Positions 2,536 through 24,036 are shown, counted from the first letter of the stretch. The stretch is DNA of 39,397 bases from a virus (IMGVR_UViG_3300044638_005715:1-39397), one strand, 5' to 3'. The notes: a model not told the origin generated them from the sequence alone. Program-made: numbers and translations.

Positions 2536-2863
2536 TCTATGAATAAACAAGAGCAGATACAGTATGCAACAAAGCGTATTTATCCAAGAATTAGTGACGA
2601 TAAGTTATTTTTCCATATCGTTGATAATATCCATAATAGAATTATATATAATATTGGCCATACCATATATCAATATATCGATGAAAAAATTAAAAAATAA
2701 AAAACTATATAAGACTAAGGAGATAGAGGGTGTATCAAGGAATGTTAATCATAAAATTCTTTACCATCACTTATTTTCCTATATTATAATTCGTCTACAT
2801 TACGCTGAATTCCTTAATATTCGTGAATCCATAACTGATTCATCATTAAATACCTATAAAAAG

Positions 2864-3092
2864 AAGGTAAAACGATCGGATGGGGATAATATAGGAAAAT
2901 TGCAGAAGGGACTTTAGAAATACCATATGAAGTGCGATTTTTGTTAGATAATGCAATCATAAAGCCTGGCAATGAATCAAAAAGATGAAAAGTAAAAATA
3001 TCAAGTATAATTTAGACGCAAAACACGATTTATTGAGACTGACTAAAGAAAAGGTAAAACCATCGGATTGGTATAATATATGTAAAATTCAG
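2864..3092 (+). repeat. imperfect 42-bp direct repeat (2864-2905 / 3051-3092) marking a tandem minigene duplication
   Basis: aaggtaaaacgatcggatggggataatataggaaaattgcag vs aaggtaaaaccatcggattggtataatatatgtaaaattcag; encode KVKRSDGDNIGKLQ / KVKPSDWYNICKIQ. Confidence 0.6.
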
Positions 3093-4067
3093 CATAATAT
3101 TTGGTTTAAAATATCCACTAACATAACATATAATATTCTAGACGTATTAGATGAAATCTAAATATGAAAAACATCATACATAAAATAGAGCATAGTGATA
3201 AAATATTCCCACATACTAAGTCTATTATCTATGAAATTATTACTATACCTAACATTATTCAGGTCATGAATGAGTCCAGGAAAAATAAAATTAATATAAG
3301 AAATCAACCATGGATAAATGTTAGTAGATACATATGTAATAATGTTAAATACAATGTAAATTCATGTATAAAAAATAATATTTTAGATAAAGATGGATGG
3401 CGACCAGTGTTTGATGAGTTATATAATCATATAAATCAAATAGTCAACAATGAATAAAAATAAGTATGAAATTTTCTTTATTACATCCTATAAAGTTACG
3501 AATCGTGTAGAATTGATATTTAAATATTTTATATTTACTCGTATTTATAATGAATTAAATATTCATTCTAGTATTTTGGGACGTATAACAACTGAAATTA
3601 GTAAAGAGGTATTGAAAAATAATGAGTAAAAATCAAAAAAACAAAATTGTAAATGAAATTGCTAATAATGTGAGGAATGACATAGATAACAATAAACCAA
3701 CTCCTAAAGTATGGTATTATATTCTATATGGAATTTTTTCCTATCAGGCCACATGGAATAACATAATTCCTCCCGAGGTCGAGCTAGGAAAGTTTGAAAT
3801 TGATCTAAATGAATATAGTAGTTGCAAATATACGCTCTTACATGATACTGTGCTAAATTATGAATGCAAATAAAAACATAAATATATTATGTCAGGTATT
3901 ACCATGAAGGAAGTTTATAATATTAGGGTTATAAATAAATCAATAAAAAAATATATTGACCCTGTAAAAATTGAGAATATACAAATTTTATGGGATAAAT
4001 CATTGGATCAAGTGGATTTTGTTTGGTATCCAATATTTGAATATATGAGAAATAATAGACATACATA

Positions 4068-4442
4068 ATGAATATTAGATTTAACTTATCTAGGGGCCCA
4101 AATTACAAAAAATGGTCTATTAAAGACGGCCTAAATAAACAATATATTTGCCCATCCGATGCTTTTATAAAATTATATGATTGTGTGCTCCATAATAATA
4201 AAAATATGGCCCAAAAGATACATAAAGGGGCCCCACGTAATGTTTGCGGGTGGATTAGAGCAAAAAGCCTGGAAATGCCCCCCATAGATGAAAATTCGGC
4301 CCATTGGATAGAAATTCCCCTATTTTACGATCCAAAAATTGCCCCAAATTGGCGGGGAATTCATGGGGAGGACCTTGACAATTACTTTTTTCCCCTTATA
4401 ATCATCAGGAAGAGATCAGTTAACGGCATTATTCAGGTGTAA
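4068..4442 (+). CDS. conserved large-phage hypothetical protein (124 aa)
   Basis: Pattern RFNLSRGPNYKKW...KIHKGAPRNVCGWI...YDPKIAPNW resembles a recurrent large-phage family (recalled). Confidence 0.65.
   Translation: MNIRFNLSRGPNYKKWSIKDGLNKQYICPSDAFIKLYDCVLHNNKNMAQKIHKGAPRNVCGWIRAKSLEMPPIDENSAHWIEIPLFYDPKIAPNWRGIHGEDLDNYFFPLIIIRKRSVNGIIQV
4375..4402 (+). promoter_or_regulatory. promoter TTGACA-N16-TATAAT (inside upstream CDS)
   Basis: Perfect hexamers at 4375-4380 and 4397-4402; next gene starts at 4444. Confidence 0.7.
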
Positions 4443-4443
4443 A

Positions 4444-4674
4444 ATGAACGAATTACAAATTGGCGACGTTGTATATTGCAGTAATCCACTACATTCTGGT
4501 TTTGGCCGCATACTTGATATTTGGCGAGATTTACCAGATGGCGAATATGTGAATGATTTTGCGGTTGTCCAGGTTATTACTATGCATAGTTGTTACAAAA
4601 TACCTCATAAAGTGGGCTCTATATGCAAGATTCCACTAAGTGAATTGTCTAAATCTCACACATATGATGAATAA
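4444..4674 (+). CDS. hypothetical protein, possible SH3/KOW-like barrel
   Basis: LQIGDVVY...GFGRILDI pattern; follows promoter 4375. Confidence 0.55.
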   Translation: MNELQIGDVVYCSNPLHSGFGRILDIWRDLPDGEYVNDFAVVQVITMHSCYKIPHKVGSICKIPLSELSKSHTYDE

Positions 4675-5911
4675 TGAAATCAATAATACATACTATCTAT
4701 TATTTCCCAAGAACTAAAGTAGAAAATAAGGCATTTCCTGTAATAGATGATTGGCTATATGAACCTTCAAGTGTTGATGCGTTTATTATAGAAAGGCAAA
4801 TTCATGAAAATCTAATTGATCAAAGTATCAAAAATGAACTTAAAAGAAGAAATAAAAAGTAATGTATTTGAAAGATTTGAAAGTGGCAGGCATAATGAAA
4901 TATCAACTGATGTTCGTTATAGGGTCCTTGTTCGCATAAACAATCCTATATGGCGTGTCTGTATTACATATTTTTGGAATATTAAAGATGAATTATCAAG
5001 AACCAAAGAAGAGTAAAATAGACACAAATACTAAATTTAAAACAAATGAGTATTTGCTAAACTTTAAATGTCTTAATGATCATATACAAGACCAATTCGA
5101 AATTCGTAACCAAATAAGACATGTAGCAATAGCCATTATATCAACCATATATGACAAGAATGTATCATAAAATTAATTCTAAATTATAAAATATGAAAAA
5201 ATGTCTAATCACACAGGCAAATAAAAATTATATTTAAAATTAAAATTATGAGATAGGCCCCTATTTTCAAAAAGTCTCCACACAAATTTACCGTAATTTA
5301 CCACACATAATTGATTTTTGGCCCCACTTTATTCCCCTTTTTATCAAGGTTACACTGTTATGAGCGTTATTGAAAAAAACCTCCCCCAATATATCCTGAA
5401 AAATGTAGAGCATAATATCGTTGTTAATAAGGCAAAATGCACTATTTATAAAACATGGAGTGACAAAGATATTGTGCGTGGAAGGGTAACATTTTTTGTT
5501 CAAGATCAAATTGTTAGTTACTTTTTTCAGCAGAAAAATGATATGGTTTCATGCTGGAAAACCCGCAAAGTGACCGAGGAACCAGATTTTACAGTATCGT
5601 TAGAAGAATTATGTGGTAAAAAATAAACTTTTTGTAACTTTTTGGAACTTTTTAATGAATGAAAGAGATATTTTAGTATATTGGGTTAGTCTTCATTGTA
5701 ATGCCGAAATTCAAATAAATACGGCCATAATTTATAAACTCACAAACATATTGAGAAATGAATTAGGTTGGATACATGGATCATTTGATGTGTATGGTAT
5801 TTTATCACGTAAATGTTTTAGGGTATATATAGATTATCCGACTGATTTAAATCGGGATGATGTGATTAACATACTGAATAATTTAAAATTACCCACCATT
5901 AATATTAAATC

Positions 5912-6412
5912 ATGATATTTTGCTTTGACTGCTTTGGAACAATATTTGATGCTTCTACTATTTTACAAGAAGATATAAAAAAATATGTCCATCATGTAAA
6001 CAAACCGGGGGCCTTTGAAAAGTTTGATTTTCCTCAATCATTTTGGGATCTGGGGGCCCATCCCGATTCGATGATGGGAATTGAGATGTTGAGAAATGCG
6101 GGCCATTATTGTATAACATTAAGTAATGGGTCAATAAACCTATTAAAATATCTGTCATCTAAGAATGGTATTATATGGGATGGTTATACTGATTTGGAGG
6201 CTTGGAGAGTTTATAAGCCCTCATTAGATGCTTACAAGGTAGTTGAAAAACAGTTTGGCTATAAACCGGCCGATTGTGTTATGGTCACTGCTAATTGTAC
6301 ATTTGGTGATATAGAGGGGGCCGAAAATATAGGGATGGAGGCATATTGTATTAGGGGTAATACGCCCTATAAAGACCTTATTGATTTTGCTCATTATATT
6401 ATTTCATTATGA
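5912..6412 (+). CDS. HAD-superfamily hydrolase, type II haloacid-dehalogenase-like
   Basis: Motif I FDCFGT, motif II LSNG, motif III YKP, motif IV ANCTFGDIEGA. Confidence 0.85.
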   Translation: MIFCFDCFGTIFDASTILQEDIKKYVHHVNKPGAFEKFDFPQSFWDLGAHPDSMMGIEMLRNAGHYCITLSNGSINLLKYLSSKNGIIWDGYTDLEAWRVYKPSLDAYKVVEKQFGYKPADCVMVTANCTFGDIEGAENIGMEAYCIRGNTPYKDLIDFAHYIISL

Positions 6413-7086
6413 AGAATTTAAAAGATTACTTGGTGAATAATTTGTTTTTTGTTGTTTCACACAAAACACATTCTTACAAAAATAAATGGGGAATTGTTAT
6501 GAACAACCTAATGCATCATGAAAGCATGGCTCATAACGATATTATAAGCCATAATATATATATAACAGTAAAACAAAATAAATGAATAATAAAACTAAAT
6601 TATTGGCAGGAGGAATGAGGATAAACAACTATATGTGGCGAAATGTCTGTCCTCATATCAGGATTATGATTTCTTCCAGGATTATGGTTTATGATTCTAT
6701 AAGGAATGAAATAGAAGCTAAAATCTATAATAACTTGAAAAATGAGCAAAGCTAGTATTGAATAATATAATGGCCCAAAATAAAAGTCTGAAAATTAAAA
6801 TCTTTTTTAAATTACAGGAAAAATTATATTTAAGTGACAATCTTAGTAGTAATATTGATATATTTGAAAGATTGCGTACTAATATATTTTTGGTGATTTA
6901 CACCAATGTACGAATATCAATTGAAAAATCTGAAACCCATATTATATAATACCACATATATACATTCTATTGTTACTAAAAATAAGTCAAATTCAAATTT
7001 AAGAACTATGGCCTGCATTACGATATATGTTGGTATTAAAATGAATTTGACTGAAAATATAAGGGAAGAAATTTTTTACCTTGCCC

Positions 7087-7114
7087 TTGACAACTAAATT
7101 TTGAACCCTATAAT
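7087..7114 (+). promoter_or_regulatory. promoter TTGACA-N16-TATAAT heading QV cluster A
   Basis: Perfect hexamers at 7087-7092 and 7109-7114. Confidence 0.8.
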
Positions 7115-7127
7115 GAAACAATATAAT

Positions 7128-7301
7128 ATGCATAGACAAGTACCTGCGTATATTGATAATCGGGTCAGGTATCAATTCGGGTATCATGTACGGGATTATG
7201 TCTGGCATAAAGTCAATCATCAAGTCGGGCGTCGTGTCTTGGGTCAGGTCAGAGTTCATATCTCATATCAGATCGATAATACTAGTGGCAATAATGATTG
7301 A
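7128..7301 (+). CDS. xxQV-repeat minigene A1 (diverged)
   Basis: MHRQVPAY...HVRDYVWHKVNHQVGRRVLGQV; start set to the ATG downstream of the promoter (ORF track start 7101 lies inside it); 8-nt overlap with next ORF. Confidence 0.6.
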   Translation: MHRQVPAYIDNRVRYQFGYHVRDYVWHKVNHQVGRRVLGQVRVHISYQIDNTSGNND

Positions 7302-7506
7302 AAATAGAACGATTAATCATGTCATGCATCGGGTCTGGAGTCAGGTCTGGATTCAGGTCCGTGGTCAGGTCAAGATTCAGGTCTTGGCTCAGGTCTATAA
7401 TCAGGTCGAGTATCAGGTTAGTAACCAGGTCCGGGATCAGGTCGGGCATAAGGTCAATAGTCTGGTTAGGGATAAGGTCTATTATACAAAGTTTTATAAT
7501 GATTGA
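7294..7506 (+). CDS. xxQV-repeat minigene A2 (70 aa)
   Basis: MIENRTINHVMHRVWSQVWIQVRGQVKIQVLAQVYNQV...; 12-nt CAGGTC periodicity; ATGATTGA start/stop overlap. Confidence 0.7.
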   Translation: MIENRTINHVMHRVWSQVWIQVRGQVKIQVLAQVYNQVEYQVSNQVRDQVGHKVNSLVRDKVYYTKFYND

Positions 7507-7678
7507 AAACAAAAAGATGAATCAGGTCGGGGATCAGGTCAGGAATCGTGTCATGCATCAAGTCTGGGATCAGGGCAGTGATAAGGTGAATGATAAGTTC
7601 TTGATTCGGGTCAAGTATCAGGATCAGGATAAATTTATGTTTGCACTTATAGCAAAAATTAAAAGGTTCTTACTATGA
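7499..7678 (+). CDS. xxQV-repeat minigene A3 (59 aa)
   Basis: MIENKKMNQVGDQVRNRVMHQVWDQ...; ATGA-coupled to the macrodomain gene. Confidence 0.65.
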   Translation: MIENKKMNQVGDQVRNRVMHQVWDQGSDKVNDKFLIRVKYQDQDKFMFALIAKIKRFLL

Positions 7679-8136
7679 TTAAATTGTCAGATGGCGATAT
7701 TTTTTATTCAAAATGTGATGCAATAGTAAACCCAGTCAATACCGTTGGTGTTATGGGGGCTGGATTAGCATTGCAATTTAAGAAAAGATTTCCAGAAATG
7801 TTTGAGGCATATGTAATACAATGCAATTCTGGCAATCTAGATATAGGTAAAAATTTTCTATGGAAAATAAAAAATGATCGATATATTATATGTTTTCCAA
7901 CTAAAAAGCATTTTAGAGACCCATCATATCTATCATATATTAGTGCCGGTTTAGAAGCATTGGAAAATGATTTATTAAATAATCCATCATATAGCAATAT
8001 TAAAAGCATTGCGATGCCAGCATTAGGATGCGGATTAGGAGGTTTGCCATTTGAGGATGTGGTAAGAGAAATTTTGGAATTTAATAGACTTAATCCAAGA
8101 ATAGACATAGAATTGTATATACCTAAACACAAATGA
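7675..8136 (+). CDS. macrodomain (Appr-1''-p processing / DarG-like ADP-ribose glycohydrolase)
   Basis: GDIF, AIVNPVNTVGVMGAGLALQFK, FPTK.H, SIAMPALGCGLGGL. Confidence 0.92.
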   Translation: MIKLSDGDIFYSKCDAIVNPVNTVGVMGAGLALQFKKRFPEMFEAYVIQCNSGNLDIGKNFLWKIKNDRYIICFPTKKHFRDPSYLSYISAGLEALENDLLNNPSYSNIKSIAMPALGCGLGGLPFEDVVREILEFNRLNPRIDIELYIPKHK

Positions 8137-8830
8137 ATAAATCACTTAGTCATCATTTTACTGATCAGAAGTTTAGACCAATCTTGAAATTGTATGAGTA
8201 TGAGCAATATATATGTAATAACATCAGTGAAAATATAAGAGATAATATTTTTATTGATATTAATATTCGAACTTTTCAAAAAATAAGACCATTAATTATA
8301 AGTATTATGAAAAATACAAATGAAAAAACATAAGGAAGCTATTTATTTTTTAGTAAGACCTAACTTGAGTGATCGGTTACCACGCTGTATTTGGTTTTGG
8401 TGTTGGGATCAGTTAGAGCTTAAACATGAATTGAGGAATATTGTAAAAGAAATTTATAATAATGTATGACCCACCAATTAAAAATAAATCAACGGAAATA
8501 CGTGATAATCTAGGACGACAAGTTAAAATTAAGTATGAAATGCTTTATAATATTATGCCAACCCCAACTATTAACAATAATATCTATTATAAATTAGAAT
8601 CAGATATAAAAGAAAATATATGGGATATGATAGTAAATTCAATACTTGATCAATTAGAAATAGATGCTATATATAAATGAATAAGAATTTAATTTATCAA
8701 ATTTATGATAAACCTAGACATTTGGCTGACAAACGTATAATTACTTCTGAAAATGTCTATTATATCGTAACACAAAATATTAGGCATAGTTTTATTATAA
8801 AACATAGTGTCTTATCTATTGAAATAAGAC

Positions 8831-9019
8831 ATGCATATAAAAAATAATTTTCAAAAAATACGTACAAATATTTGGTCCAAACTTGATATTCAACTTTATA
8901 TTCAAACTGGTTTCTGGATAAGAAATCATATTGCATTAGATTTTGAGCCATCAAGAGTTGATTCTATTAAGTATAAAATATTTCGCGATTTAGATTTAGA
9001 ATTACATGATAAAAAATAA
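8831..9019 (+). CDS. small paralogous protein (tandem duplicate 1)
   Basis: MHIKNNFQKIRTNIW; shares a 28-bp exact repeat (8837-8864) with the next ORF (9009-9036). Confidence 0.6.
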   Translation: MHIKNNFQKIRTNIWSKLDIQLYIQTGFWIRNHIALDFEPSRVDSIKYKIFRDLDLELHDKK

Positions 9020-9036
9020 TTTTCAAAAAATACGTA
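8837..9036 (+). repeat. 28-bp exact direct repeat ataaaaaataattttcaaaaaatacgta (8837-8864, 9009-9036)
   Basis: Direct comparison; both copies lie at the 5' ends of adjacent minigenes (IKNNFQKIR). Confidence 0.85.
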
Positions 9037-9546
9037 GAAATACTTGGTATGCAATTGCTATTATTAAGCTTAATATTCAAACTGACTCCTGGCCAATAAA
9101 TAATATTGCATCAGATTTGAAGCATCCATTAATTATCAAAGATCATATATTGCGTAATTTGTCATTACATCATGAAAAATAAAAAGTGTCAGATCATATC
9201 GTATCCATTATCGTATGCGTATCCATCGTTAAATATAAAACAAAGTGAAAATAAGTCGCTACAAAGAATATTATTCACTAAATGCTTTGCACAACTTAAT
9301 ATCTCAATGGGGTTTTTAAAGAAAGCAATTGTCGATACCTTAGATGAAATTATCTACTTTACAAAATAATGATAAAACATAAGATGACTAATATACGCAC
9401 TAATTTAGCTACCTATATTCAGAAATACTTACAAATAAAAATTACCAAATATATAATAGATGATATATGTATAAATATAGAAAATCCTAATGGAATGCAA
9501 GCTTTTACAAAATATATCATATATTCTGAAATTCAAAGGAACAACA

Positions 9547-9945
9547 ATGTATAAGATTAGAATAGATAGTCATATAACTGAAAAAAGGGCTCCAACAGAT
9601 GAATCTATTAGGTTGGCCAAAGAATATGAAGAAAAGATAATAAAATCCATCATTGCTGATGGTGTGTGCAACTTACAAATAAATCAAATAAGTTGGACAA
9701 TAAGAGATGATGGGCATAAATATACTATATATGTTATATTCTTTATTGATGAAAGAAAACAAAATATAGAAATTGATATTTATCGTAAAGATATTAAATA
9801 TAATAACATATTTAATGGAATGGATCAAACTACCTACATAGTTGATAGAATAATCAATGCAATATCTCAACATTGTTCCCGTGTAATTATGCATAATATG
9901 ATATTACAGGGTTTTTCCACATCTATTGAAGAAATGATAAAATGA
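9547..9945 (+). CDS. hypothetical protein
   Basis: Open frame with AAGGA upstream of ATG 9547; ATGA overlap with next gene. Confidence 0.6.
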   Translation: MYKIRIDSHITEKRAPTDESIRLAKEYEEKIIKSIIADGVCNLQINQISWTIRDDGHKYTIYVIFFIDERKQNIEIDIYRKDIKYNNIFNGMDQTTYIVDRIINAISQHCSRVIMHNMILQGFSTSIEEMIK

Positions 9946-10415
9946 AAACATATATTTTAAATGGTTTTATGTATCCATTAGATAAGTATTTTCCAAACAG
10001 TGATAAGGTGAAAAATATATGGAGATGGAATTGGAATAAGAAAAAAGCTATTGAATTTGCCGATACTATAAAGGGGCCCTGTCAATTAATTGGGTTTTCA
10101 GATGGGGCAACAGCCGCCCTAGAAGTTGCTAATAACTCTATATATGTACAAAGAGTATATTGTCATTCATGTATGTATAGATCACACGAAATGCTGCGTA
10201 GATTTGAAGTGGTGTTTTTTAGAACCAACGGCGATACAACACCGACTTATGATGGAACAGAGAAAAGGTTCCTATCATATAAAGTAGCTGGGTATCCATG
10301 TGAAATTATGGACCTAGATCCAGTTACAATAAGTAATAAAAATATAGTAGATAGAATTAGTGGTTTATTCGGCCATCAATTCGAAAATGCTATGCCCTAT
10401 ATTAAAATTACTTAG
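9942..10415 (+). CDS. minimal alpha/beta-hydrolase-like protein
   Basis: Nucleophile elbow LIGFSDGA (GxSxG); candidate Asp in TNGD; C-terminal GH. Confidence 0.6.
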   Translation: MKTYILNGFMYPLDKYFPNSDKVKNIWRWNWNKKKAIEFADTIKGPCQLIGFSDGATAALEVANNSIYVQRVYCHSCMYRSHEMLRRFEVVFFRTNGDTTPTYDGTEKRFLSYKVAGYPCEIMDLDPVTISNKNIVDRISGLFGHQFENAMPYIKIT

Positions 10416-10791
10416 GTTTCCAAGCAATAGCGTGCCCAGAATCTACCATTAGTTTATTTAATGAGTTGCCATTCTCATCATAAATAACAGCAAGCCACCT
10501 ACCAAATGAATCCTCTTTATCCTTAAATGTATTAACATATAATTCTTTTGCATTACTAATAAGCTCAGAAAAATATGCATTAGCGACCTCATATGCCTCC
10601 TTTGTTTTTTTTCTGTTCTCAGGAGTATTTATACCATAAAGTCTATATCTTTCTTCATCAAATGACCTTTTCCCCTGATCACAAACCAATATTATGGTAT
10701 CTCCATCTATTATGCGTGATATAGATATGACACGGCGAAAATATAAGAATTTTTTAATATCTTCACCAGTTACATTTTCAAATTCTACCAT
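10408..10791 (-). CDS. SNase/thermonuclease-family nuclease
   Basis: RIIDGDT, RLYGINTPE, DSFGRWLA, LNKLMVDSGHA. Confidence 0.9.
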   Translation of the reverse strand: MVEFENVTGEDIKKFLYFRRVISISRIIDGDTIILVCDQGKRSFDEERYRLYGINTPENRKKTKEAYEVANAYFSELISNAKELYVNTFKDKEDSFGRWLAVIYDENGNSLNKLMVDSGHAIAWKPK

Positions 10792-10815
10792 ATGTAATTC
10801 TCTATATATTTATAA

Positions 10816-11670
10816 TTACCAATTACGGCATGACCAATATCTTGCCTTCCATTTTGGACCAGGATTTGTGTCACATTTATGACGGGCCCTAAATAATTTC
10901 CTTCTTTCTGGATCGTTTTTCTTTATGGTCATATTTGGATCGCCAAACCGTACAATAACAATCTTACCTTTATCATTTTTAGTATAAACAGCAAATTTTT
11001 TAGGACCACTAGGAGTTCTAAATGGTTTATTTAATGTTACTTTACGACCTTGATATTCGGCCGCCATTTCCGTTTCCATATCATCTTCTTCATATGGTTC
11101 ATTATACATCATATAATCATAAGCAGACTCAATATGAACATCAGCTTTAGATATATTATCTTGAACCCATCCCTCTAATTCCTCATCATCTTCAAGTGCA
11201 TTATAAATAGCCATGGCCTTTTCTGCTATTTTCTTTAATTGGGCCTTTGCCATGCCACCTTCACCGCCATCAGATGATTGTGCCATTTTCCATGCTTTTG
11301 GATCTGGTCGATCTTTATCCCCAGGTTTAGCTGGCCTATATTTTTTTCCTTCTCTCTTTTTCTTCTTCCTAATATTTTCCCATAGGCTAGCCGAACTAAT
11401 AGTTTCAGGATCAACACCTTCATCTACATAATCTTCATCTGGCGGAATATAAAAGTTACTAACCCTTAATTCTTCTTCCCAACCACATTCATTGAATTCC
11501 AAAATAGCAGATGCTGAATCTTTAATATCTAAATCAATGGTAGCCTTAGACATACATACTGCTACTCTTTGCTTATTGTCTGGATAGTCCTTCTTCATCA
11601 TTTCGTCGCCCATGCAGCGACCCATAAAACTGGAACTATCTTCTCCCTTACGCTTACTTGGAATTGGCAT
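10816..11670 (-). CDS. modular phage protein (284 aa) of four short conserved modules
   Basis: PIPS..FMGRCM..YPDNKQRVAVC; LWENIRKK..KPGDKDRP; EGGMAKAQL..LEGWVQDNI; AEYQGRKVTLNKPF..RARHKC..KARYWSC (recalled from aquatic T4-like/large phages). Confidence 0.75.
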   Translation of the reverse strand: MPIPSKRKGEDSSSFMGRCMGDEMMKKDYPDNKQRVAVCMSKATIDLDIKDSASAILEFNECGWEEELRVSNFYIPPDEDYVDEGVDPETISSASLWENIRKKKKREGKKYRPAKPGDKDRPDPKAWKMAQSSDGGEGGMAKAQLKKIAEKAMAIYNALEDDEELEGWVQDNISKADVHIESAYDYMMYNEPYEEDDMETEMAAEYQGRKVTLNKPFRTPSGPKKFAVYTKNDKGKIVIVRFGDPNMTIKKNDPERRKLFRARHKCDTNPGPKWKARYWSCRNW

Positions 11671-11897
11671 TATTTGCGGCCCTCTTTAATATTTTCTTCC
11701 CACCAAAAATTAATACGGCAATGCTCTTTATCCCAAAAGAACACATAATCAATAAACATTCTAGTCATCATCCAATATATAGAATGATATTGGCATCTAT
11801 ATGAACGACTAGATAGCATTTCATCAAAATCGCCACCCAGTAATGTATTTAATGTTCTAGATGCAGCAATTTTAAAATGTTGAAATTGTGTTAGCAT
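11670..11897 (-). CDS. conserved small phage protein
   Basis: LNTLLGGDFDEMLSSRSYR...FIDYVFFWDKEHC pattern (recurrent phage hypothetical, recalled). Confidence 0.7.
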   Translation of the reverse strand: MLTQFQHFKIAASRTLNTLLGGDFDEMLSSRSYRCQYHSIYWMMTRMFIDYVFFWDKEHCRINFWWEENIKEGRK

Positions 11898-11898
11898 A

Positions 11899-12423
11899 TT
11901 ACTTACTATATAATTCGGAAAATTTTTCTATTGGCATATATCCATTATACTCAACAAATTCACCAGACTTATTATAAAATTGAAAGACGGGAACTGAACC
12001 AGTATATTCTATTGGTTTAATTTTCCATCCCTTCTTAACTAATAATGGTTGTACTTGTAATTTCCATACATCACAATGCTTACAGTCATCCCTAGTAAGC
12101 ATTTTAATCTCATCTTTAATTATGGTATTATCCTGTATTTTATCATTGATATCCATTTCATGAATTATACCATCACCACCACAATTTTCGCATTTCACAC
12201 AGATAGTTCCGTCACCAACCCTTCCAACACCACACTTCCCAGGTGGGCTATTACAGTCACGACATTTATCACCAACACTTTGTTTAACACCATCTATAAT
12301 CTCATCCTCATTTAAAGCTGTATATTTTGCCATTAATGCAACACTATTAGCATACTCCGTATATGAAATAGGTGAATTACAGCCGACAAAAAGGATAAAA
12401 AATATAGTAAATATTCTTAACAT
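11899..12423 (-). CDS. predicted lipoprotein with Zn-finger-like CxxC pairs and C-terminal thioredoxin/glutaredoxin-like domain
   Basis: GGAG SD before ATG 12423; lipobox-like FVGC; CRDC..GRVGDG..CENCGGDG; DCKHCDVWK...SVPVF. Confidence 0.7.
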   Translation of the reverse strand: MLRIFTIFFILFVGCNSPISYTEYANSVALMAKYTALNEDEIIDGVKQSVGDKCRDCNSPPGKCGVGRVGDGTICVKCENCGGDGIIHEMDINDKIQDNTIIKDEIKMLTRDDCKHCDVWKLQVQPLLVKKGWKIKPIEYTGSVPVFQFYNKSGEFVEYNGYMPIEKFSELYSK

Positions 12424-12436
12424 TATAAACTCCGTT

Positions 12437-12652
12437 TTATTTATTACATCCACAATCACATTGATTAATAATACAATTACAGGGTGAATTAATATCTAGT
12501 TTGAAACATGCCGGGCAATCTACACATTCGCACACGGCCCCATTAACAACAGAAGCAGAACTTGAACGCTCACTTGTGCCAATACAGTATGAACCTACTG
12601 ATAACACAACAAACAAACCTACTAAAAGTAAACAACTATTTAAATTCGTCAT
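12437..12652 (-). CDS. small secreted or membrane-anchored Cys-rich protein
   Basis: AAGGAG SD; hydrophobic N-terminus; CECVDCPAC...CNC...CDCGC. Confidence 0.75.
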   Translation of the reverse strand: MTNLNSCLLLVGLFVVLSVGSYCIGTSERSSSASVVNGAVCECVDCPACFKLDINSPCNCIINQCDCGCNK

Positions 12653-12661
12653 TATATCTCC

Positions 12662-14836
12662 TTAACCTAATAAACCAGTGCCCCAATTATTTATTTTTTG
12701 CATCTTCCAACCATTTAGGCCAGCAAATACACTACAGTCTCTATTTCTAATATCAGACCAACGGGCCCAAAATGAACCCTCTGGAATCATAATATTGCCA
12801 GTATTAGGATTGACTATCCCTAATTTAATCCATCTATTTTTTTTGTGTTTTGGAACATATTGGGCACTATCTAAAATATCACGGTTCCCAGATATCCATC
12901 TTGGGCCCCAACTATTCTGAACTAATACTAGGGGCTCTTTATATATCCTTTTAATAATTTCCCTATCATCGGCCGCAATATATGCCATAGCATGGGCCCA
13001 ACTACCTTGTCTTTGTGCCACACCATGCTCTGATCGCTGTTTGGCAAACCCTTCTGAACCACATGTATGAATAAATCGGCCCTGACCTAATGAATCACGT
13101 ATTCCCTCAAATGTATTAGTTCTTGCAGCAGTCCTAATAAGATTTTTACCTAATAGTGCCTGTATGGAATCTGGCGGTTGTGAAGCCCCCCATTTCCCTG
13201 CTAAAGCCGCATCATATTTGGTTAGATCTATATTTGATCCTTCTAGAGGGCCCCTTATTACAGCACCTGCTTTCTGCATACTAACATTAGCAGATGCCTC
13301 ACAGTACCAACCGTCACCACCATGGCCCCTAAACCAATAAAATACCTCAGTTGATAATGCACCATTTCTTATTCCATCAACAGATATTTTGGGCAATGTT
13401 TCTAACATGCCAGTTTGTTCATCTGTCTGACCTGATACAATTTCACCAATCATTGTGCCCAATATAGCATTCTTATTGGAGTGCGACACACAATTAAAAA
13501 TACCAAAACCATTACATATAAAATTATGATCATATTCTACTTCAATACAATAAACATAATTATTTTCTGGATCGACTATGTTAATTTCTTTTATCTTAAC
13601 TTCTCGACCATAACATTGTGATAAATTTGATATAGTTGTATATTCAGTTTTAGGAAGCATAAACTCTATAGAAGTTGCTATATTAGCAAAATCTAACATT
13701 AAATCCTTATTAACCGAAACGGCACATGACATATATTTGGATTTATGACCGTCTCCATCAAACCATCCTTTCAATAAAGCTATTTTATTAGATTGATTCA
13801 TTATAAAACATTCTTTACATAATCTTTTGGTATATGTATTACCATTAACTAAATATTTAAAGAATGATGCAATTATAGATGAAGAAACTCTTACATAAAT
13901 AACAGTTGGTTTAGATGGAACAGTATAAATATGTGGTTCTATACCAAAAATATCTATAAAATATTCTCTCAGTTTATCAGCAATTTCTGTCTCATGACTA
14001 CCTAAATTAAATGTAATTCTATTGAATTCTGATTTATCACCATCTATACCTCCCTCAGCAGCATATAATCCAATAATCCATGCTAATCTTTCATTACATT
14101 TAATATATCTATTTACCTGAATAGATGAATTTTTTCCCCTTATTTTATTTTCATCAACAGGGACTATCCTGTTTAGAGCAAAATCTATATCATCTGTTAT
14201 TGCTTCTCTATTATAGTAATGATATAAATCAAATATAAATTCTTCAGAATACAGAATGGGGGGTAAATAAACTTTGTCACCAATAGATAATTCAGATATT
14301 GGTTTACCCTCTAAGGTATGTGGATTAATAATATATTTATGATCCGGTGTAGATGCTATTTTATTTAAATAACCCTCTACAGAAATTTCTACCATTTTTT
14401 TATTATATGGCTTTTTAAAAACATTTGTAACCATTCGCTTGTTACCAGTGGCACTAATAACGTATTCGCCGACTTTAATGTCTTTAATTTGTTTTTCAGA
14501 ACCATCAGACATTCTTACTAAATCACTTCCATTTTGGCAATCGCCCCTACCCTGAGCAGGCCCCGGTAACGCAGTAGGAACCAATTCCATTATATGAACA
14601 AACGGGATTACTAATTGACTAGCAAACGCATTAAACCAATTGAATGCATATGCAGCATCTTCTACCTGTGTATATCCACCAGTTTGCTTAGATAATTCTG
14701 TAAATTTGTCTCGTTCTTCCGGGTCTAAGTATGTGCCCGCAAAACCATCGGTATACTTTCTGATGATATCATCTACAGGAAGTGCAAGAGAAGGATCTTG
14801 GTCCCATACTTTAGAATGCTTAGGATATATTTTCAT
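12662..14836 (-). CDS. papain-like (C1/clan CA) cysteine peptidase precursor containing an intein
   Basis: Spliced extein reads PAQGRGD|CVSHS (Gln oxyanion + catalytic Cys), WAHAM (His), VQNSWG (Asn); start placed at the ATGA overlap 14836 (track start 14851). Confidence 0.85.
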   Translation of the reverse strand: MKIYPKHSKVWDQDPSLALPVDDIIRKYTDGFAGTYLDPEERDKFTELSKQTGGYTQVEDAAYAFNWFNAFASQLVIPFVHIMELVPTALPGPAQGRGDCQNGSDLVRMSDGSEKQIKDIKVGEYVISATGNKRMVTNVFKKPYNKKMVEISVEGYLNKIASTPDHKYIINPHTLEGKPISELSIGDKVYLPPILYSEEFIFDLYHYYNREAITDDIDFALNRIVPVDENKIRGKNSSIQVNRYIKCNERLAWIIGLYAAEGGIDGDKSEFNRITFNLGSHETEIADKLREYFIDIFGIEPHIYTVPSKPTVIYVRVSSSIIASFFKYLVNGNTYTKRLCKECFIMNQSNKIALLKGWFDGDGHKSKYMSCAVSVNKDLMLDFANIATSIEFMLPKTEYTTISNLSQCYGREVKIKEINIVDPENNYVYCIEVEYDHNFICNGFGIFNCVSHSNKNAILGTMIGEIVSGQTDEQTGMLETLPKISVDGIRNGALSTEVFYWFRGHGGDGWYCEASANVSMQKAGAVIRGPLEGSNIDLTKYDAALAGKWGASQPPDSIQALLGKNLIRTAARTNTFEGIRDSLGQGRFIHTCGSEGFAKQRSEHGVAQRQGSWAHAMAYIAADDREIIKRIYKEPLVLVQNSWGPRWISGNRDILDSAQYVPKHKKNRWIKLGIVNPNTGNIMIPEGSFWARWSDIRNRDCSVFAGLNGWKMQKINNWGTGLLG
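13493..14539 (-). mobile_element. intein (349 aa) with LAGLIDADG homing endonuclease
   Basis: Starts CQNGSDLVRMSDGSEKQIKDIKVGE; block B TPDH; IIGLYAAEG and LLKGWFDGDG; block F VYCIEV; ends IFN followed by Cys+1. Confidence 0.93.
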
Positions 14837-15291
14837 TGCTGAAATGCCCAACCAATAGATTTATATAAGGAAATTAATTTACTCTTATTATCATCATTTA
14901 TTTTTATAGGGTATTCACCTATATATGTATTAAATAATTTGTCCATTTCCTCACTAGCACCAGGAAATAAGCCTTTAAGATCTCCGTGTTTCCTAATATA
15001 CATTGAGATCAAATCTTCATTGTATGATGGCAATTTATCAGACACCATATCAATAGTAGATAGTTCAAAAGTATCGGCCGCAGCAAACCACATAGACGCC
15101 ATTTTATCTTTTTGATCTTTAGTGGCCTTACTTGATTTAACTATATTAGCTAAATTACCAACCCTAGACATTTCATCGGGTGATAATTGAACAGTGCTCA
15201 CATTACTTTGTATATTAAGTGATTTTAAATTAGGGACACTAATTACAAATAATCCGGCAACTATAAGGAGAATAGGAATTATATTTTTCAT
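14833..15291 (-). CDS. secreted or membrane-anchored protein (152 aa)
   Basis: MKNIIPILLIVAGLFVIS signal-like N-terminus; coupled to both neighbours by ATGA overlaps. Confidence 0.75.
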   Translation of the reverse strand: MKNIIPILLIVAGLFVISVPNLKSLNIQSNVSTVQLSPDEMSRVGNLANIVKSSKATKDQKDKMASMWFAAADTFELSTIDMVSDKLPSYNEDLISMYIRKHGDLKGLFPGASEEMDKLFNTYIGEYPIKINDDNKSKLISLYKSIGWAFQQ

Positions 15292-15569
15292 TTCTTGTCT
15301 ACTATAGTCTCTGAGGTAACTGGTGGATTAATAATTCCATTTATGACATTTGTTAAGTCCTTATATATTTTTTCATCCTTATACCTTTCTCTCATATTAA
15401 TTAGTATTTCTAAGTCACTCATAATGCCATTCCCATTATTATTTAAAGGGGCCGCATTACGATCACATAACTTATTAAATATAGTAAATAATTGATCTTT
15501 AAAGAAAAACCCGGCCCCGCCAGATCCCAGTAATAAAAGTCCTAAAAGATTATCTTGAATAAATTGCAT
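15288..15569 (-). CDS. small membrane protein, possible holin-like
   Basis: N-terminal hydrophobic LLGLLLLGSGGAGFFF; operon context. Confidence 0.6.
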   Translation of the reverse strand: MQFIQDNLLGLLLLGSGGAGFFFKDQLFTIFNKLCDRNAAPLNNNGNGIMSDLEILINMRERYKDEKIYKDLTNVINGIINPPVTSETIVDKK

Positions 15570-15570
15570 G

Positions 15571-15867
15571 TTAGTTACCGTATATAATTGGTTTAATAGT
15601 TTTTAATATAGCGTTTTTTGCTAATTTCCTAGTTATGATTTGGGGAAATGGTAAATCAAGCTTAGGTATGATAATATCAATAACGGCCTCAATTGCCTTC
15701 ATTAAAGTATCTGGATTAATAGAGGGGTTCTTATCAAATATATCTTTAATTACACCTAATATCTGTATTAGAAGTGTACCCTTATCCTTCTCATTAATAT
15801 GAGGTATGATACTGTCATATATATCTTGACTTAACTTGTCTTCATCAAAATTATATTGCGATTCCAT
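15571..15867 (-). CDS. hypothetical helical protein, first gene of the - strand operon
   Basis: GGAG SD upstream; 98-aa ORF. Confidence 0.7.
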   Translation of the reverse strand: MESQYNFDEDKLSQDIYDSIIPHINEKDKGTLLIQILGVIKDIFDKNPSINPDTLMKAIEAVIDIIIPKLDLPFPQIITRKLAKNAILKTIKPIIYGN

Positions 15868-15906
15868 ATTTTCTCCAATTTGTATAAAAATAAATACTCA
15901 ATGGGA

Positions 15907-15934
15907 TTGACAGGAAGGAAATTTAATTTAAAAT
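15907..15934 (+). promoter_or_regulatory. promoter TTGACA-N16-TAAAAT heading QV cluster B
   Basis: TTGACA 15907-15912, TAAAAT 15929-15934. Confidence 0.65.
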
Positions 15935-15978
15935 TATGTGAGTTTGTGTGAATCCTTTTAAAAAATTGTGGTATTACT

Positions 15979-16182
15979 ATGATAAATAATCATATTGATT
16001 ACAAAAATGTAAAAAATAAGGTCAATAATCAGGTCCGTGGTCAGGTCAAGATTCAGGTCTTGGCTCAGGTCTATAATCAGGTCGATAATCAGGTCCATGG
16101 TCAGGTCAGGGTTCAGGTCAAGATTCAGGTCTCCATTCAGGTCGAAAATCATGTCCATCATACCAAGGGCAATAATGAATAA
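15979..16182 (+). CDS. xxQV-repeat minigene B1 (67 aa)
   Basis: ...NQVRGQVKIQVLAQVYNQV...HHTKGNNE. Confidence 0.7.
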   Translation: MINNHIDYKNVKNKVNNQVRGQVKIQVLAQVYNQVDNQVHGQVRVQVKIQVSIQVENHVHHTKGNNE

Positions 16183-16351
16183 AAAGAGCGTTATTAAGCA
16201 GGTCCGTGGTCAGGTCGATAATCAGGTCATGTATCAGGTCAATTATCAGGTCTATAATCCGGTCTGGAATCAGGTCTGGGATTATATCAGTGATAAGGTC
16301 AGGGATCAGGTCTGGGATCAGGTCCATCATACTAAGGGCGATAATGAGTAA
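16175..16351 (+). CDS. xxQV-repeat minigene B2 (58 aa)
   Basis: AAGGG SD-like + ATG; MNKKSVIKQVRGQV...HHTKGDNE. Confidence 0.7.
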   Translation: MNKKSVIKQVRGQVDNQVMYQVNYQVYNPVWNQVWDYISDKVRDQVWDQVHHTKGDNE

Positions 16352-16520
16352 AAAGAGCGTTATTAAGCAGGTCCGTGGTCAGGTCAGGAAGCAGGTCATG
16401 CAGCAGGTCGATAATCAGGTCAATAATCAGGTCTGGAATCAGGTCTGGGATTATATCAGTGATAAGGTCTGGGATCAGGTCTGGGATCATGTCTATCATA
16501 CTAAGGGCGATAATGAGTAA
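16344..16520 (+). CDS. xxQV-repeat minigene B3 (58 aa)
   Basis: MSKKSVIKQVRGQV...YHTKGDNE; near-duplicate of B2. Confidence 0.7.
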   Translation: MSKKSVIKQVRGQVRKQVMQQVDNQVNNQVWNQVWDYISDKVWDQVWDHVYHTKGDNE

Positions 16521-16797
16521 AGAGAGCTTGAATTCACGGGTCAAGGATCATTTCAGGTGTCATGTCGGGGATCAGGTCGGGGATCAGGTCAGGGATCAAG
16601 TCTGGGATCAGGTCTGGAATCAGGTCCGTGGTCAGGTCAAGATTCAGGTCTGGGCCCAGGTCAGGAATCAAATCCAGGATCAGGTCTATAATCATGTCGA
16701 TAATCAGGTCTATAATCAGGTCCGTAGTCAGGTCGGTAATCAGGTCCGTGGTCAGGTCGGGGATCAGGTCCATCATACCAAGGGCGATAATGAGTAA
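16513..16797 (+). CDS. xxQV-repeat minigene B4 (94 aa)
   Basis: MSKESLNSRV...GDQVGDQVRDQVWDQV...HHTKGDNE. Confidence 0.7.
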   Translation: MSKESLNSRVKDHFRCHVGDQVGDQVRDQVWDQVWNQVRGQVKIQVWAQVRNQIQDQVYNHVDNQVYNQVRSQVGNQVRGQVGDQVHHTKGDNE

Positions 16798-16990
16798 AAA
16801 GAGCGTTATTAAGCAGGTCCGTGGTCAGGTCGGGAATCAGGTCATGTATTATGTCAATTATCAGGTCCGTTGTCAGGTCGGTAATCAAGTCAGGAGTCAG
16901 GTCTATAATCAGTTCGAGAATCAGGTCATGCAGCAGGTCAGTGATCAGGTCTATAATCATGTCTATCATACCAAGGGCGATAATGAGTAA
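16790..16990 (+). CDS. xxQV-repeat minigene B5 (66 aa)
   Basis: MSKKSVIKQVRGQV...YHTKGDNE. Confidence 0.7.
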   Translation: MSKKSVIKQVRGQVGNQVMYYVNYQVRCQVGNQVRSQVYNQFENQVMQQVSDQVYNHVYHTKGDNE

Positions 16991-17168
16991 GAATATCACG
17001 GTTCAGATCCAGGATCAAGTCTGGGATCAGGTCGGGGATCAGGTCTGGTATCAAGTCTCCAATCATGTAAGAAGAATTGATGTCGAGAATCAGATCCGGT
17101 ATAAAGTCTGGGATAAAATCAAGAATAATATAGGAAATAAGGTTATGAATTTACTAATTTCTCAATAA
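16983..17168 (+). CDS. xxQV-repeat minigene B6 (61 aa, diverged C-terminus)
   Basis: MSKNITVQIQDQVWDQVGDQV... Confidence 0.65.
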   Translation: MSKNITVQIQDQVWDQVGDQVWYQVSNHVRRIDVENQIRYKVWDKIKNNIGNKVMNLLISQ

Positions 17169-17193
17169 ATAAATTATTTTTTTAAAAAAATGG

Positions 17194-17221
17194 TTGACAT
17201 TTTTTTGCTTTATGGTATACT
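17194..17221 (+). promoter_or_regulatory. promoter TTGACA-N16-TATACT with extended -10 TG, upstream of ruvB
   Basis: TTGACA 17194-17199; TGG-TATACT 17213-17221; A/T tract upstream. Confidence 0.8.
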
Positions 17222-17265
17222 AGATGGACCGATGTGATGAATTAAAATAATAAGGTAAAAAAAAC

Positions 17266-18159
17266 ATGGTTAGACCCGTCAATCTAAATCAAATTGTTGG
17301 GCAGACAGATGCTAAAACTGTTATTCAGGTATTATTGAATGCCTCTATGATTAAAAATGAGGCAATGCCACACATCTTGTGCAGTGGGCCCGCAGGAAAT
17401 GGTAAAACGACTGTTGCTAAATGCACTGCCGCCGCCAAGGGCACAAAACTATATGAAATTAATGCAGCTAATATTAATACTATAAATCAAATATCAGAGA
17501 TTATAGGAGGGATGAAAGACCAAGATATATTATTTATTGATGAGATCCATAATTTAAAGCCAAAAGTATGTGAATGGCTATATACTGTTATGGAGGATTT
17601 TAAATATTATGAGAAAGTTGGCTCATCCATTATTGTTCGCCAGACGGCTCGTATAACTATTTTTGGTGCCTCAACGTGTATTGGCAAGCTTCCTACGCCA
17701 TTAAAAGCCAGATTTAAATTTACGGCCGAATTTGTGCCATATACAGAAGATGAACTGTGTGATATTGTGCAATTGGTTTGCCAGTCTTATAATTTTAAGC
17801 TCAATTCAAAGCTAGCACATGTAATAGCCAAAACATGCAGATTGACCCCTCGATTGGTGGTAAGTCGCACAGAATGGATAAGAGATTACATGATTTCAAA
17901 AAATTTAAGGAAAATCTCTTGCGAAGAGGTTATAAGTATCATAAAACTTCAGGGCGTAGATGAAGACGGCCTTACCCGCCTGGACCACTCCTACCTCTCC
18001 GTCGTGAGAGATAATCATCCAATCAGTGTAGGACAAATCGCCCACAAACTAAATATCGATAAGGACACAGTAATCAATGATGTGGAGCCTTATCTCATCA
18101 AGAGTGGTTTAATTGAGATTACTACCAAGGGTCGCATTCTGGGGAGAAATTACAAATGA
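17266..18159 (+). CDS. ruvB: Holliday junction branch migration AAA+ helicase RuvB
   Basis: RPVNLNQIVGQ, Walker A GPAGNGKTT, Walker B ILFIDEIH, LKARF, TPR, C-terminal VEPYLIKSGLIEITTKGR. Confidence 0.92.
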   Translation: MVRPVNLNQIVGQTDAKTVIQVLLNASMIKNEAMPHILCSGPAGNGKTTVAKCTAAAKGTKLYEINAANINTINQISEIIGGMKDQDILFIDEIHNLKPKVCEWLYTVMEDFKYYEKVGSSIIVRQTARITIFGASTCIGKLPTPLKARFKFTAEFVPYTEDELCDIVQLVCQSYNFKLNSKLAHVIAKTCRLTPRLVVSRTEWIRDYMISKNLRKISCEEVISIIKLQGVDEDGLTRLDHSYLSVVRDNHPISVGQIAHKLNIDKDTVINDVEPYLIKSGLIEITTKGRILGRNYK

Positions 18160-18449
18160 CAGCCATAGAAAAAATTGCCGAATTTTACTATAAAAAACAC
18201 TCATCTGTTGATAAGGCAATTCATGAAGTATTAAGCCTTCGTATTACTAATATAACAGAAGATGATACAGAAGTCAGAATTACTCTATCTAGGCCCGGTA
18301 TACTTATTGGTAGAAATGGTACAAATATTACTGACCTTATAAATCATATGGGCAAATCTATAAGAATTATAGAGGCAGAAAATTGTGTTACTGATCAAAT
18401 AATCATAGAAATATATAATCAAGATCCATCATATTTAAATGACTATTGA
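18156..18449 (+). CDS. stand-alone type II KH-domain protein (uS3-like KH)
   Basis: VRITLSRPGILIGRNGTNI matches the RPG.VIG..G GxxG loop of the S3 KH domain. Confidence 0.7.
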   Translation: MTAIEKIAEFYYKKHSSVDKAIHEVLSLRITNITEDDTEVRITLSRPGILIGRNGTNITDLINHMGKSIRIIEAENCVTDQIIIEIYNQDPSYLNDY

Positions 18450-18625
18450 ACATCGCAGATACTCTTTACAAGAATCTGATCAAATATGTGATCAAATAAT
18501 TGATAATAAGTATACATATAGTGTATCACATCTAATAGTTAATACTATGTGGAATCAATTTGGCCTTATGTTAAAAAATAATGTCAAACATGCAGTACGA
18601 AAGATTGACAATAAGGGGCAAAATA

Positions 18626-23113: not shown

Positions 23114-23141
23114 TTGACAACAAATTTTTTGACCTTATAAT
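23114..23141 (+). promoter_or_regulatory. promoter TTGACA-N16-TATAAT with upstream A-tracts
   Basis: Perfect hexamers; GGAG SD follows before 23185. Confidence 0.85.
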
Positions 23142-23184: not shown

Positions 23185-24036
23185 ATGATTGATAGTTTGA
23201 CGCCAGAGCAGGAAGCACAGTTGCCAGTTTATCGAGACAAGTGGATTAATATTGGTCTCCAAACTGGCCCCTGTAATTTTGAGGAAGCATGTAAGTGGGT
23301 ACGTGTCGCCTATGAAAAGGCTAATCTAGCACCACCAAAGGATATTATTCATGCACATGGTCCACTTGAGGCCATTGATATCATCCAGAAGAAAACTGGT
23401 GAAACTAAGTCTGAAATTCTAGCAGGCCAAATGTATGGCAATCATGATGCTAACTGGCTCGGCTATTATGAGTATTTTTGGAAGGTTTTGGGAGTGGAAG
23501 AGTGTAATTTGCTTGAGGGCCTGATTAACCTAGCTTATCATGCTGGGTGGTGGAATGCTTATGAGGATTTTGCAGTAGTGCAAGATTTCCCAGTCATTAT
23601 TCATCGTAATCAGGAAGGGGCCCTTCATTGTGAGGATGGTCCTGCCCTACATTATAATGATGGTCTAAAGATTTGGCAAATCGATGGGCATCGTGTAAAT
23701 GAGCAGATTGTAATGAGGCCAGAAACCTTAACCGTAAAACAGATTCATGCGGAAACCAATGCCGATATTCAATCAATTATGTTGAATCGATTTGGTTGGC
23801 ATCGTTATATTGTGGATACTGCCGCAAAATTATTGGATAATCGTCATAATTACGTGGAAAATACCAAGGAGGCACTATATGATTGTGGTACACAAGGATT
23901 GAGATTATTGGTAACCTGCCCCAGCGGCAGAGTATTTAGTAAGGGCATTGGCCCTGGTATTAAGACATGTCAAGCCGCCCAAAGTTGGCTTGGCAATGAT
24001 GTTGAGAATAAGTTTAATATTATTGGTCGAACCTAA
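23185..24036 (+). CDS. DUF6745-like protein
   Basis: LTPEQEAQL..RDKW..GL.T, GNHDANWLGYY, GWW, LHCEDGPAL.YNDG..IW.IDG, NRFGW, LLVTCPS (family recalled). Confidence 0.75.
   Translation: MIDSLTPEQEAQLPVYRDKWINIGLQTGPCNFEEACKWVRVAYEKANLAPPKDIIHAHGPLEAIDIIQKKTGETKSEILAGQMYGNHDANWLGYYEYFWKVLGVEECNLLEGLINLAYHAGWWNAYEDFAVVQDFPVIIHRNQEGALHCEDGPALHYNDGLKIWQIDGHRVNEQIVMRPETLTVKQIHAETNADIQSIMLNRFGWHRYIVDTAAKLLDNRHNYVENTKEALYDCGTQGLRLLVTCPSGRVFSKGIGPGIKTCQAAQSWLGNDVENKFNIIGRT

Follow-up and report, generated by a model that had tools for sequence, protein, structure and literature searches.

The first 39 kb of a 137-kb record of an uncultured phage (IMGVR_UViG_3300044638_005715:1-39397; 39,397 nucleotides (nt), in the following called the window; the record has 32% guanine plus cytosine (GC) and is 92% complete) carry two arrays of small overlapping open reading frames (ORFs) composed of a tetrapeptide repeat; the phage stems from lake water, and the repeat is of the type x-x-Q-V. 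They are located at positions 7128-7678 (array A) and 15979-17168 (array B). According to the explanation that we favor, and that we regard as rather probable when taken as a whole, the arrays represent two operons of nine translationally coupled small genes which would be transcribed early from host-type promoters. Each product would consist of 57-94 amino acids (aa) with little beyond the x-x-Q-V run, and a single long alpha-helix is predicted for it. These minigenes would be free-standing, amplified copies of a repeat tract which most relatives carry inserted in one protein containing the domain DUF6745 (PF20530). The DUF6745 protein of this phage appears to have lost the tract, which would persist as separate genes. 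That the ORFs are real genes, that they are a split-off DUF6745 tract and that they evolve unit by unit is the highly probable part of this explanation. Tetrapeptide-repeat proteins of phages are known; new here is their split, amplified and operon-coupled form.

The sequence-only reading of the window had described array B as six coupled ORFs of 58-94 aa, built from 12-nt units encoding x-x-Q-V. ORF calling confirmed six overlapping ORFs of this design on the + strand.

15979..16182, + strand, minigene B1, 67 aa
16175..16351, + strand, minigene B2, 58 aa
16344..16520, + strand, minigene B3, 58 aa, tandem paralogue of B2
16513..16797, + strand, minigene B4, 94 aa, corresponding to B2/B3 plus 9 units, predicted to form one long helix
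16790..16990, + strand, minigene B5, 66 aa, corresponding to B2/B3 plus 2 units
16983..17168, + strand, minigene B6, 61 aa, with its own C-terminus and one register slip

The second half of each 12-nt unit is CAGGTC and encodes Gln-Val. Consecutive ORFs overlap by 8 nt with the sequence ATGAATAA or ATGAGTAA. As had been noticed before, a 27-nt junction combines the C-terminus, the motif AAGGG, the next ATG and the stop codon. It encodes H-H/Y-T-K-G-D/N-N-E-stop, and AAGGG lies 5 nt upstream of the next ATG. The start spacings from B2 to B6 (169, 169, 277 and 193 nt) were likewise found to be 12n+1 throughout. The spacing from B1 to B2 is 196 nt (12n+4), and B1 and B6 possess termini of their own. 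The four-residue register had been called unbroken; this is correct except for B6, where one 5-residue unit occurs after residue 29. Among the 143 in-register units of both arrays, position 4 is Val in 99 and Ile, Phe or Leu in 18 more, position 3 is Gln in 77 and position 2 is Asn or Asp in 65, while Arg, Gly, Trp, Lys and Tyr are found at position 1. The x-x positions are indeed permuted around a kept Q-V anchor, as the differences between B2 and B3 lie mostly at x-x. Only two places in the entire 137-kb genome contain CAGGTC runs spaced by 12 nt.

Array A was found in addition and is absent from the sequence-only reading. It comprises three ORFs of the array B design, which are followed by a gene for a Macro-domain protein.

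7128..7301, + strand, minigene A1, 57 aa, degenerate x-x-Q-V repeat
7294..7506, + strand, minigene A2, 70 aa, 8-nt overlap with A1 (ATGATTGA)
7499..7678, + strand, minigene A3, 59 aa, 8-nt overlap with A2, stop codon overlapping the ATG of the Macro gene (ATGA)
7675..8136, + strand, Macro-domain gene (PF01661, E 1.2e-15), translationally coupled to array A
7353..7409, + strand, 57-nt block identical to 16029-16085 in array B

The repeat of array A is less well preserved than that of array B. Gln is often replaced by Arg, His, Lys or Tyr, and a hydrophobic residue is retained at every fourth position. Since the 57-nt block is identical in both arrays, which lie 8.7 kb apart, they appear to have exchanged sequence recently; the identity indicates gene conversion or recent copying between A and B. 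The ATGA coupling ties the repeat peptides to a gene of the ADP-ribose binding/hydrolase family, a type often linked to ADP-ribosylation conflicts.

The relation of the minigenes to DUF6745 was revealed by homology searches. A HMMER search with the B4 protein (P0004, 94 aa) against 1.84 billion representative sequences retrieved 761 clusters at E values up to 0.001, 164 of them below 1e-10, with a best E value of 1.7e-41. Nearly all of the best 150 of the 761 matches were proteins of 300-600 aa which were aligned within a repeat tract, and 51 of 60 sampled matches carry PF20530. The long tract proteins (350-600 aa) consist of a conserved N-terminal segment, the tract and the DUF6745 domain, in this order. 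Tract-bearing DUF6745 proteins are thus common, as a single query of 94 aa retrieved 761 clusters at 50% identity. Among phage records, tblastn with P0004 found only the tract of a mycobacterial prophage, and a homologue search with the minigene protein P0005 at near lengths yielded no candidate. In a language-model atlas B4 adjoins viral hypothetical proteins of 61-96 aa without a Pfam family. Searches of the six array B proteins with Pfam and PHROGs gave nothing significant. Because none of the six matches PF20530, the minigenes are derivatives of the tract and not members of the DUF6745 domain family. The domain is encoded by a separate gene.

23185..24036, + strand, tract-less DUF6745 gene, 283 aa, the sole DUF6745 gene of the genome

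In an alignment with tract-bearing relatives both flanks of the tract were present in this protein, joined by a short linker at the tract site. A structure model calculated with 52 relatives as alignment showed a compact single unit (predicted local distance difference test (pLDDT) 93.6, predicted template modelling score 0.83), in which the tract site, at about residues 72-84, is a stretch of slightly lower confidence. Since the tract-less protein folds compactly, the tract of the relatives must be an excursion from the globular body. The best VIA match of the model reached a Z score of 4.9 on a 46-residue beta piece, and the AlphaFold database returned other DUF6745 models only. The protein encoded at 23185-24036 is a good target for structure determination.

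The IMG/VR collection was scanned for four CAGGTC, four CAAGTT or four CAAGTA words at 12-nt spacing; all counts refer to the matches listed by these scans. Among the matches listed, at least 66 loci carried the tract inside an ORF of at least 280 aa, and at least 10 loci (about 8 records) carried chains of minigenes. Six of the 8 other array-bearing records possess one DUF6745 gene, which is tract-less in five and retains degenerate remnants only in the sixth, a 369-kb phage. In 4 of these 6 records array and gene are direct neighbors, or the array encloses the gene. The remaining two records, which are 46% and 63% complete, gave no DUF6745 match. In five records with a tract-bearing DUF6745 gene, runs of CARGT with a period of 12 were confined to that gene. 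The simplest reading of this distribution would be a fission, by which the tract separated from DUF6745 to form a gene of its own that was then multiplied. An N-terminus of the type M-(S)-K-(K)-S-V-x-K-Q-V is found in this phage and in L098, L124 and L284, and other types occur in L217, L218 and L247. As the termini differ between lineages, fission may have happened more than once. The split form shows that the tract is a module able to work, or at least to persist under selection, alone. The literature that was searched contained no paper naming DUF6745 or PF20530 and no description of tetrapeptide-repeat minigene chains.

An excised tract might also survive as a set of selfishly expanding minisatellite ORFs, decaying leftovers with no function of their own. 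Array A is visibly more degenerate, with Gln changed to Arg, His, Lys or Tyr in many units, and gene-call collections lack the exact proteins. However, several unrelated phage records show the split arrangement as well, where up to 15-24 coupled genes are intact, and Val is retained through synonymous drift. Even array A keeps the hydrophobic fourth position and the coupling into the Macro gene, and strong early promoters are retained. We therefore regard mere decay as unlikely.

The array B paralogues allow a closer view of how the arrays change. The lengths of B2 to B5 differ by 0, 108 and 24 nt. B2 and B3, which are equal in length, differ at 11 codons, none of them synonymously; 9 differences affect x-x, 2 affect Gln and none affects Val. 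Several are multi-base changes of adjacent codons which resemble swapped units. The paralogues differ only by non-synonymous or whole-unit changes, and therefore the family diversifies. Recurring at intervals of 12 nt, the constant (A/G)ATCAGGTC clearly offers itself as an anchor for slippage or unequal exchange preserving both frame and register. In the proposed mechanism whole 12-nt units of the arrays would be gained, lost, swapped or converted, with this element of about 8 nt as the anchor. Because the unit events would be anchored there, the frame and the four-residue register would be kept and the Q-V codons homogenized. Selection would retain Val, and mostly Gln too, and leave the two exposed positions free. 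The B2/B3 pattern and the 57-nt block common to both arrays are in line with the earlier suggestion of copying at the DNA level, in steps of one 12-nt unit. To account for the array pattern, no more than slippage of units or unequal crossing-over is required. The arrays offer a clean natural example of a constant DNA anchor that keeps frame and structural register while exposed residues diversify.

The sequence-only reading had gone further and had proposed a dedicated recombination-driven diversification system. Such a programmed, rapidly reshuffling library would change the order and number of its units within populations in order to track host targets. The replacement of whole units and the 12-nt length steps among paralogues would fit this proposal, as would the 11 of 11 non-synonymous codon differences between B2 and B3 and the 57-nt conversion tract linking both arrays. 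Moreover, escape mutants of Tweety gp54, a tetrapeptide-repeat protein, arise via gain or loss of repeats (PMC9262239). In contrast, no match to the reverse transcriptase family RVT_1 was found in the 137-kb record (92% complete), the arrays do not qualify as targets of a diversity-generating retroelement, and no dedicated recombinase adjoins them. Contigs from four lake runs (2020 and 2024) matched pieces of the window, mostly with zero differences. A clean gain or loss of 12-nt units was not seen in these contigs, which, being assembled from short reads, break in the arrays and drop rare variants. The only indel was a 3-nt deletion at 16434 in one contig with a depth of 2.6. Joints that skip forward or go back in the array contain foreign letters and could be assigned to array A or the arrays of other phages. 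Consequently, an actively reshuffling library is improbable. The coding units, the copying of 12-nt units and the early promoter-led region of the earlier interpretation stand, and the dedicated diversification system is not supported.

The contig with the deletion at 16434 (run X6, 2020) also differs at 16410 and 16413. It may represent a strain variant, in which the change is in-frame and breaks the four-residue register. With respect to the joints at 16583-17101, the same lake samples hold other period-12 arrays with CAAGTC or CAAGTT. Since the contigs show such arrays, several phages in these lakes appear to carry repeat genes of this kind.

The coding status of the ORFs was assessed by codon usage and by comparison with other phages. 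CAGGTC occurs 65 times in the window versus 6.4 expected occurrences, and none of 100 shuffles reached 65. Nearly all of these copies lie in the arrays, where all are on the + strand. In the arrays, Gln is encoded by CAG in 58 of 64 cases and Val by GTC in 68 of 76. Throughout 102 long ORFs of the genome CAG accounts for 27% of the Gln codons and GTC for 8.5% of the Val codons, and none of 51 Q-V dicodons is CAGGTC. The Asp and Asn codons at the x-x positions of the arrays are the genome-typical GAT and AAT. The near-constant CAG GTC in an AT-rich genome had been taken as a sign of copying at the DNA level; uniformity within arrays, together with other hexamers in other phages, supports this view. 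For each of the three hexamers, many of the matches listed were ORFs that read x-x-Q-V in frame. Uniformity within single arrays was high: CAAGTT accounts for 27 of 27 units in L188, CAAGTA for 32 of 33 in L355 and CAGGTC for 33 of 33 in L092, which has 28% GC. A complete 369-kb phage uses mixed codons. Its 371 units contain 258 Val residues (encoded by GTT, GTC, GTG and GTA), 41 Ile residues and few other residues. Because other phages use different codons for Q-V, it is, as far as these comparisons reach, the amino-acid pair and not the DNA word that is conserved across phages. By the same comparison, a hexamer that is uniform inside one array marks its units as copies of a founder. The Q-V frame alone keeps the same reading under all codon variants, and it is also the only frame in which each junction has an ATG, a stop codon and an overlap. 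We regard it as almost certain that the ORFs are coding.

Two roles of the DNA word itself were considered and dropped. CAGGTC as a restriction or methylation word was rejected, its frequency outside the arrays being about as expected. Origin iterons were rejected on account of the 12-nt period, the variable half-units and the coding signals. Rfam covariance models, including those of type III antitoxin repeats, gave no match at the gathering score on positions 6900-17400. A non-coding repeat that acts as DNA or RNA (as a protein-binding-site array, an iteron-like element, an RNA sponge or an antitoxin-like repeat RNA) with incidental ORFs is very improbable. In its favor, CAGGTC is almost free of synonymous change though CAG and GTC are rare in the genome, the repeats can be read through in all three forward frames and in the reverse frames, and the arrays have 41-44% GC compared with 32% in the genome. 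Against it, Q-V is kept with different hexamers elsewhere, the same repeat stands in-frame in DUF6745 proteins, the variable half-unit changes amino-acid class freely, each junction retains its ATG, its stop codon and its overlap, a period of 12 nt does not agree with the helical repeat, no Rfam match was obtained, and type III antitoxin repeats have longer and less varied units.

Structure prediction for B4 with AlphaFold2, performed without an alignment, resulted in a single helix spanning residues 3-92, and the best model had a pLDDT of 78. The peptides had been called amphipathic on the basis of a Val at every fourth residue. This does not hold for the predicted helix, around which the hydrophobic stripe winds so that there is no classical amphipathic face. 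It follows from helix geometry that the hydrophobic line of the modelled peptide would advance by 40 degrees per unit and circle the helix about every 9 units. The peptide would accordingly be rod-shaped, with Val and Gln forming a ridge that spirals around it, accompanied by two variable lines of mostly polar or aromatic residues. A pentapeptide-repeat solenoid was rejected because the period is 4, a helix was predicted by AlphaFold2 and no pentapeptide Pfam match was obtained even at E values up to 1.

The claim that array B possesses its own promoter is supported as far as a sequence can show this. Its promoter belongs to a strict class defined as TTGACA-16-TAnAnT. The sites at the arrays and at the DUF6745 gene are as follows:

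7087..7114, + strand, array A promoter, sigma-70-type, TTGACA-16-TATAAT, 12/12
15907..15934, + strand, array B promoter, TTGACA-16-TAAAAT, 11/12
17194..17221, + strand, next promoter, for a RuvB-like AAA+ gene, marking the end of the array B unit, TTGACA-16-TATACT
23114..23141, + strand, DUF6745 gene promoter, strict class, 12/12

The genome contains 19 forward sites of the strict class and 0 reverse sites, whereas shuffled sequences contained 0.66 on average and 3 at most. The sites span positions 200-38704 of the window and extend in the genome to 119676, with 17 of the 19 in the first 53 kb. Three of them directly precede the two arrays and the DUF6745 gene, units which would probably form one early class read by the host polymerase. 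The strict class looks like the early promoter set of the phage and would give a ready map of its early transcription units.

The neighboring genes are of an accessory or early type. They encode the Macro protein, an SNase-like nuclease, an intein-bearing protein, the RuvB-like AAA+ protein, HD and metallophosphatase proteins, NAMPT and an RNA ligase. The arrays are located in an early, promoter-led region where genes for host takeover and anti-defence are expected. The intein-bearing protein is encoded by an ORF of 729 aa at positions 12662-14851 of the window on the - strand, which contains an intein with a LAGLIDADG endonuclease (Pfam Intein_splicing and LAGLIDADG_3).

Words of the stretch are present in 24 lake or freshwater metagenome runs, and 15 of the 24 hold at least a fifth of the words. 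No RNA runs were listed among the sequencing runs holding such words. A blastn search with positions 15500-18500 against 50,697 phage records gave no match. A search for related loci by means of the RuvB-like neighbor did not find a close relative of the arrays, and scans of metagenome contigs with the array junction and with the P-loop of the neighboring gene yielded 0 matches each. The junction pattern AAGGGCRATAATGARTAA gave 8 matches in viral contigs, all of which were ordinary gene junctions without repeats.

With regard to function, the sequence-only reading had named host binding, decoy or anti-defence as possible roles. The products may act as helical binding or spacer modules of variable length and variable surface. 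They might serve early host takeover or counter-defence, either jointly with the tract-less DUF6745 protein or in its place. This functional layer, which is drawn from analogy, is possible and remains tentative. A more specific version assumes interchangeable, trans-acting "stalks" that dock on the tract-less DUF6745 protein, so that one early-expressed core and nine alternative helices differing in length and surface would give combinatorial binders. We regard it as unlikely. If it were true, the system would be a split, multi-allelic, repeat-tuned counter-defence protein by which one phage covers several host defence variants. The split form in any case gives a simple experimental handle, as the short peptides can be expressed one by one.

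Several observations count against the explanation given here. The coding status of the ORFs, as far as it can be judged, rests on sequence comparison at the level of the family. None of the nine exact products is present in a collection of 15 billion proteins; gene callers miss or mis-frame such minigenes. The near-exclusive use of CAGGTC in a genome with 32% GC could also hide a role at the DNA or RNA level. The junctions of array A have no clear Shine-Dalgarno sequence. Only 13 nt separate the -10 box in front of array A from the start codon of A1, which leaves a leader of about 6 nt without a Shine-Dalgarno sequence, and translation of A1 would be near-leaderless. The B4 helix is a single-sequence prediction for which the other four models had pLDDT values of 52-72, and Gly, Asn and Asp are frequent in the minigenes for a helix. 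No solved structural relative of the DUF6745 model was found by Foldseek (E > 0.4). Finally, Tweety gp54 has no Pfam family, and its comparison with the DUF6745 profile by hhalign gave a probability of 0.15%. The two are not homologous, and the functional analogy suggested by gp54 is correspondingly weak.

Gp54 of mycobacteriophage Tweety (also Che8 gp57 and PMC gp51) is the closest analogue that has been studied. It is a counter-defence protein with tetrapeptide repeats that can be tuned by mutation. This function was established by genetics, and the number of repeats retunes the counter-defence (PMC2884959, PMC9262239). Like the minigenes, gp54 is built from a 12-bp unit with two invariant and two variable residues (PMC2884959). 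Non-synonymous change at the variable positions, a repeat number that varies from phage to phage and a GC content of the tract unlike that of the genome are also shared. Tweety gp54 differs in its A-A-x-x repeat and in being a single protein of 374 aa with unique N- and C-terminal domains and no DUF6745. If the analogy holds, the arrays would be widespread, fast-evolving counter-defence or host-takeover factors.

The DUF6745 tracts are the best sequence matches of the minigenes and have the same 12-nt/4-residue unit with the same residue preferences (R/G/W, D/N, Q, V/L), and their length varies likewise. Tract-bearing examples are gp38 of the Mycobacterium prophage prophiGD102-1 (x-x-Q-L) and the IMG/VR proteins L092:2779-4119 and L053:2841-4310 (x-x-Q-V). 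In these relatives the tract is inserted between the N-terminal segment and the core of one protein of 350-600 aa, whereas the phage studied here has nine separate genes of 57-94 aa with their own starts and stops and a tract-less DUF6745 protein.

Minigene arrays of the same class are found in IMG/VR at L098, L124/L035, L051, L217/L164, L218 and L284, and an x-x-Q-L array at L247. The last, at positions 1235-9018 of a 125583-base record, is a chain of more than 24 minigenes whose products (50-90 aa) have the termini M-E-N-L-N-K-K-I ... D-G-K-S-Q, in a 46%-complete record without a DUF6745 match. The arrays of this class consist of 6 to more than 20 coupled genes of 45-115 aa, joined by 8-nt overlaps of the ATGAnTAA type or by short spacers. 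Several share an N-terminus of the type M-K-S-V-K-K-Q-V. A tract-less DUF6745 gene is located next to the array or at another place in the genome. The termini (here ...H-H-T-K-G-D-N-E), the codons (here CAGGTC) and the copy number are specific to each lineage.

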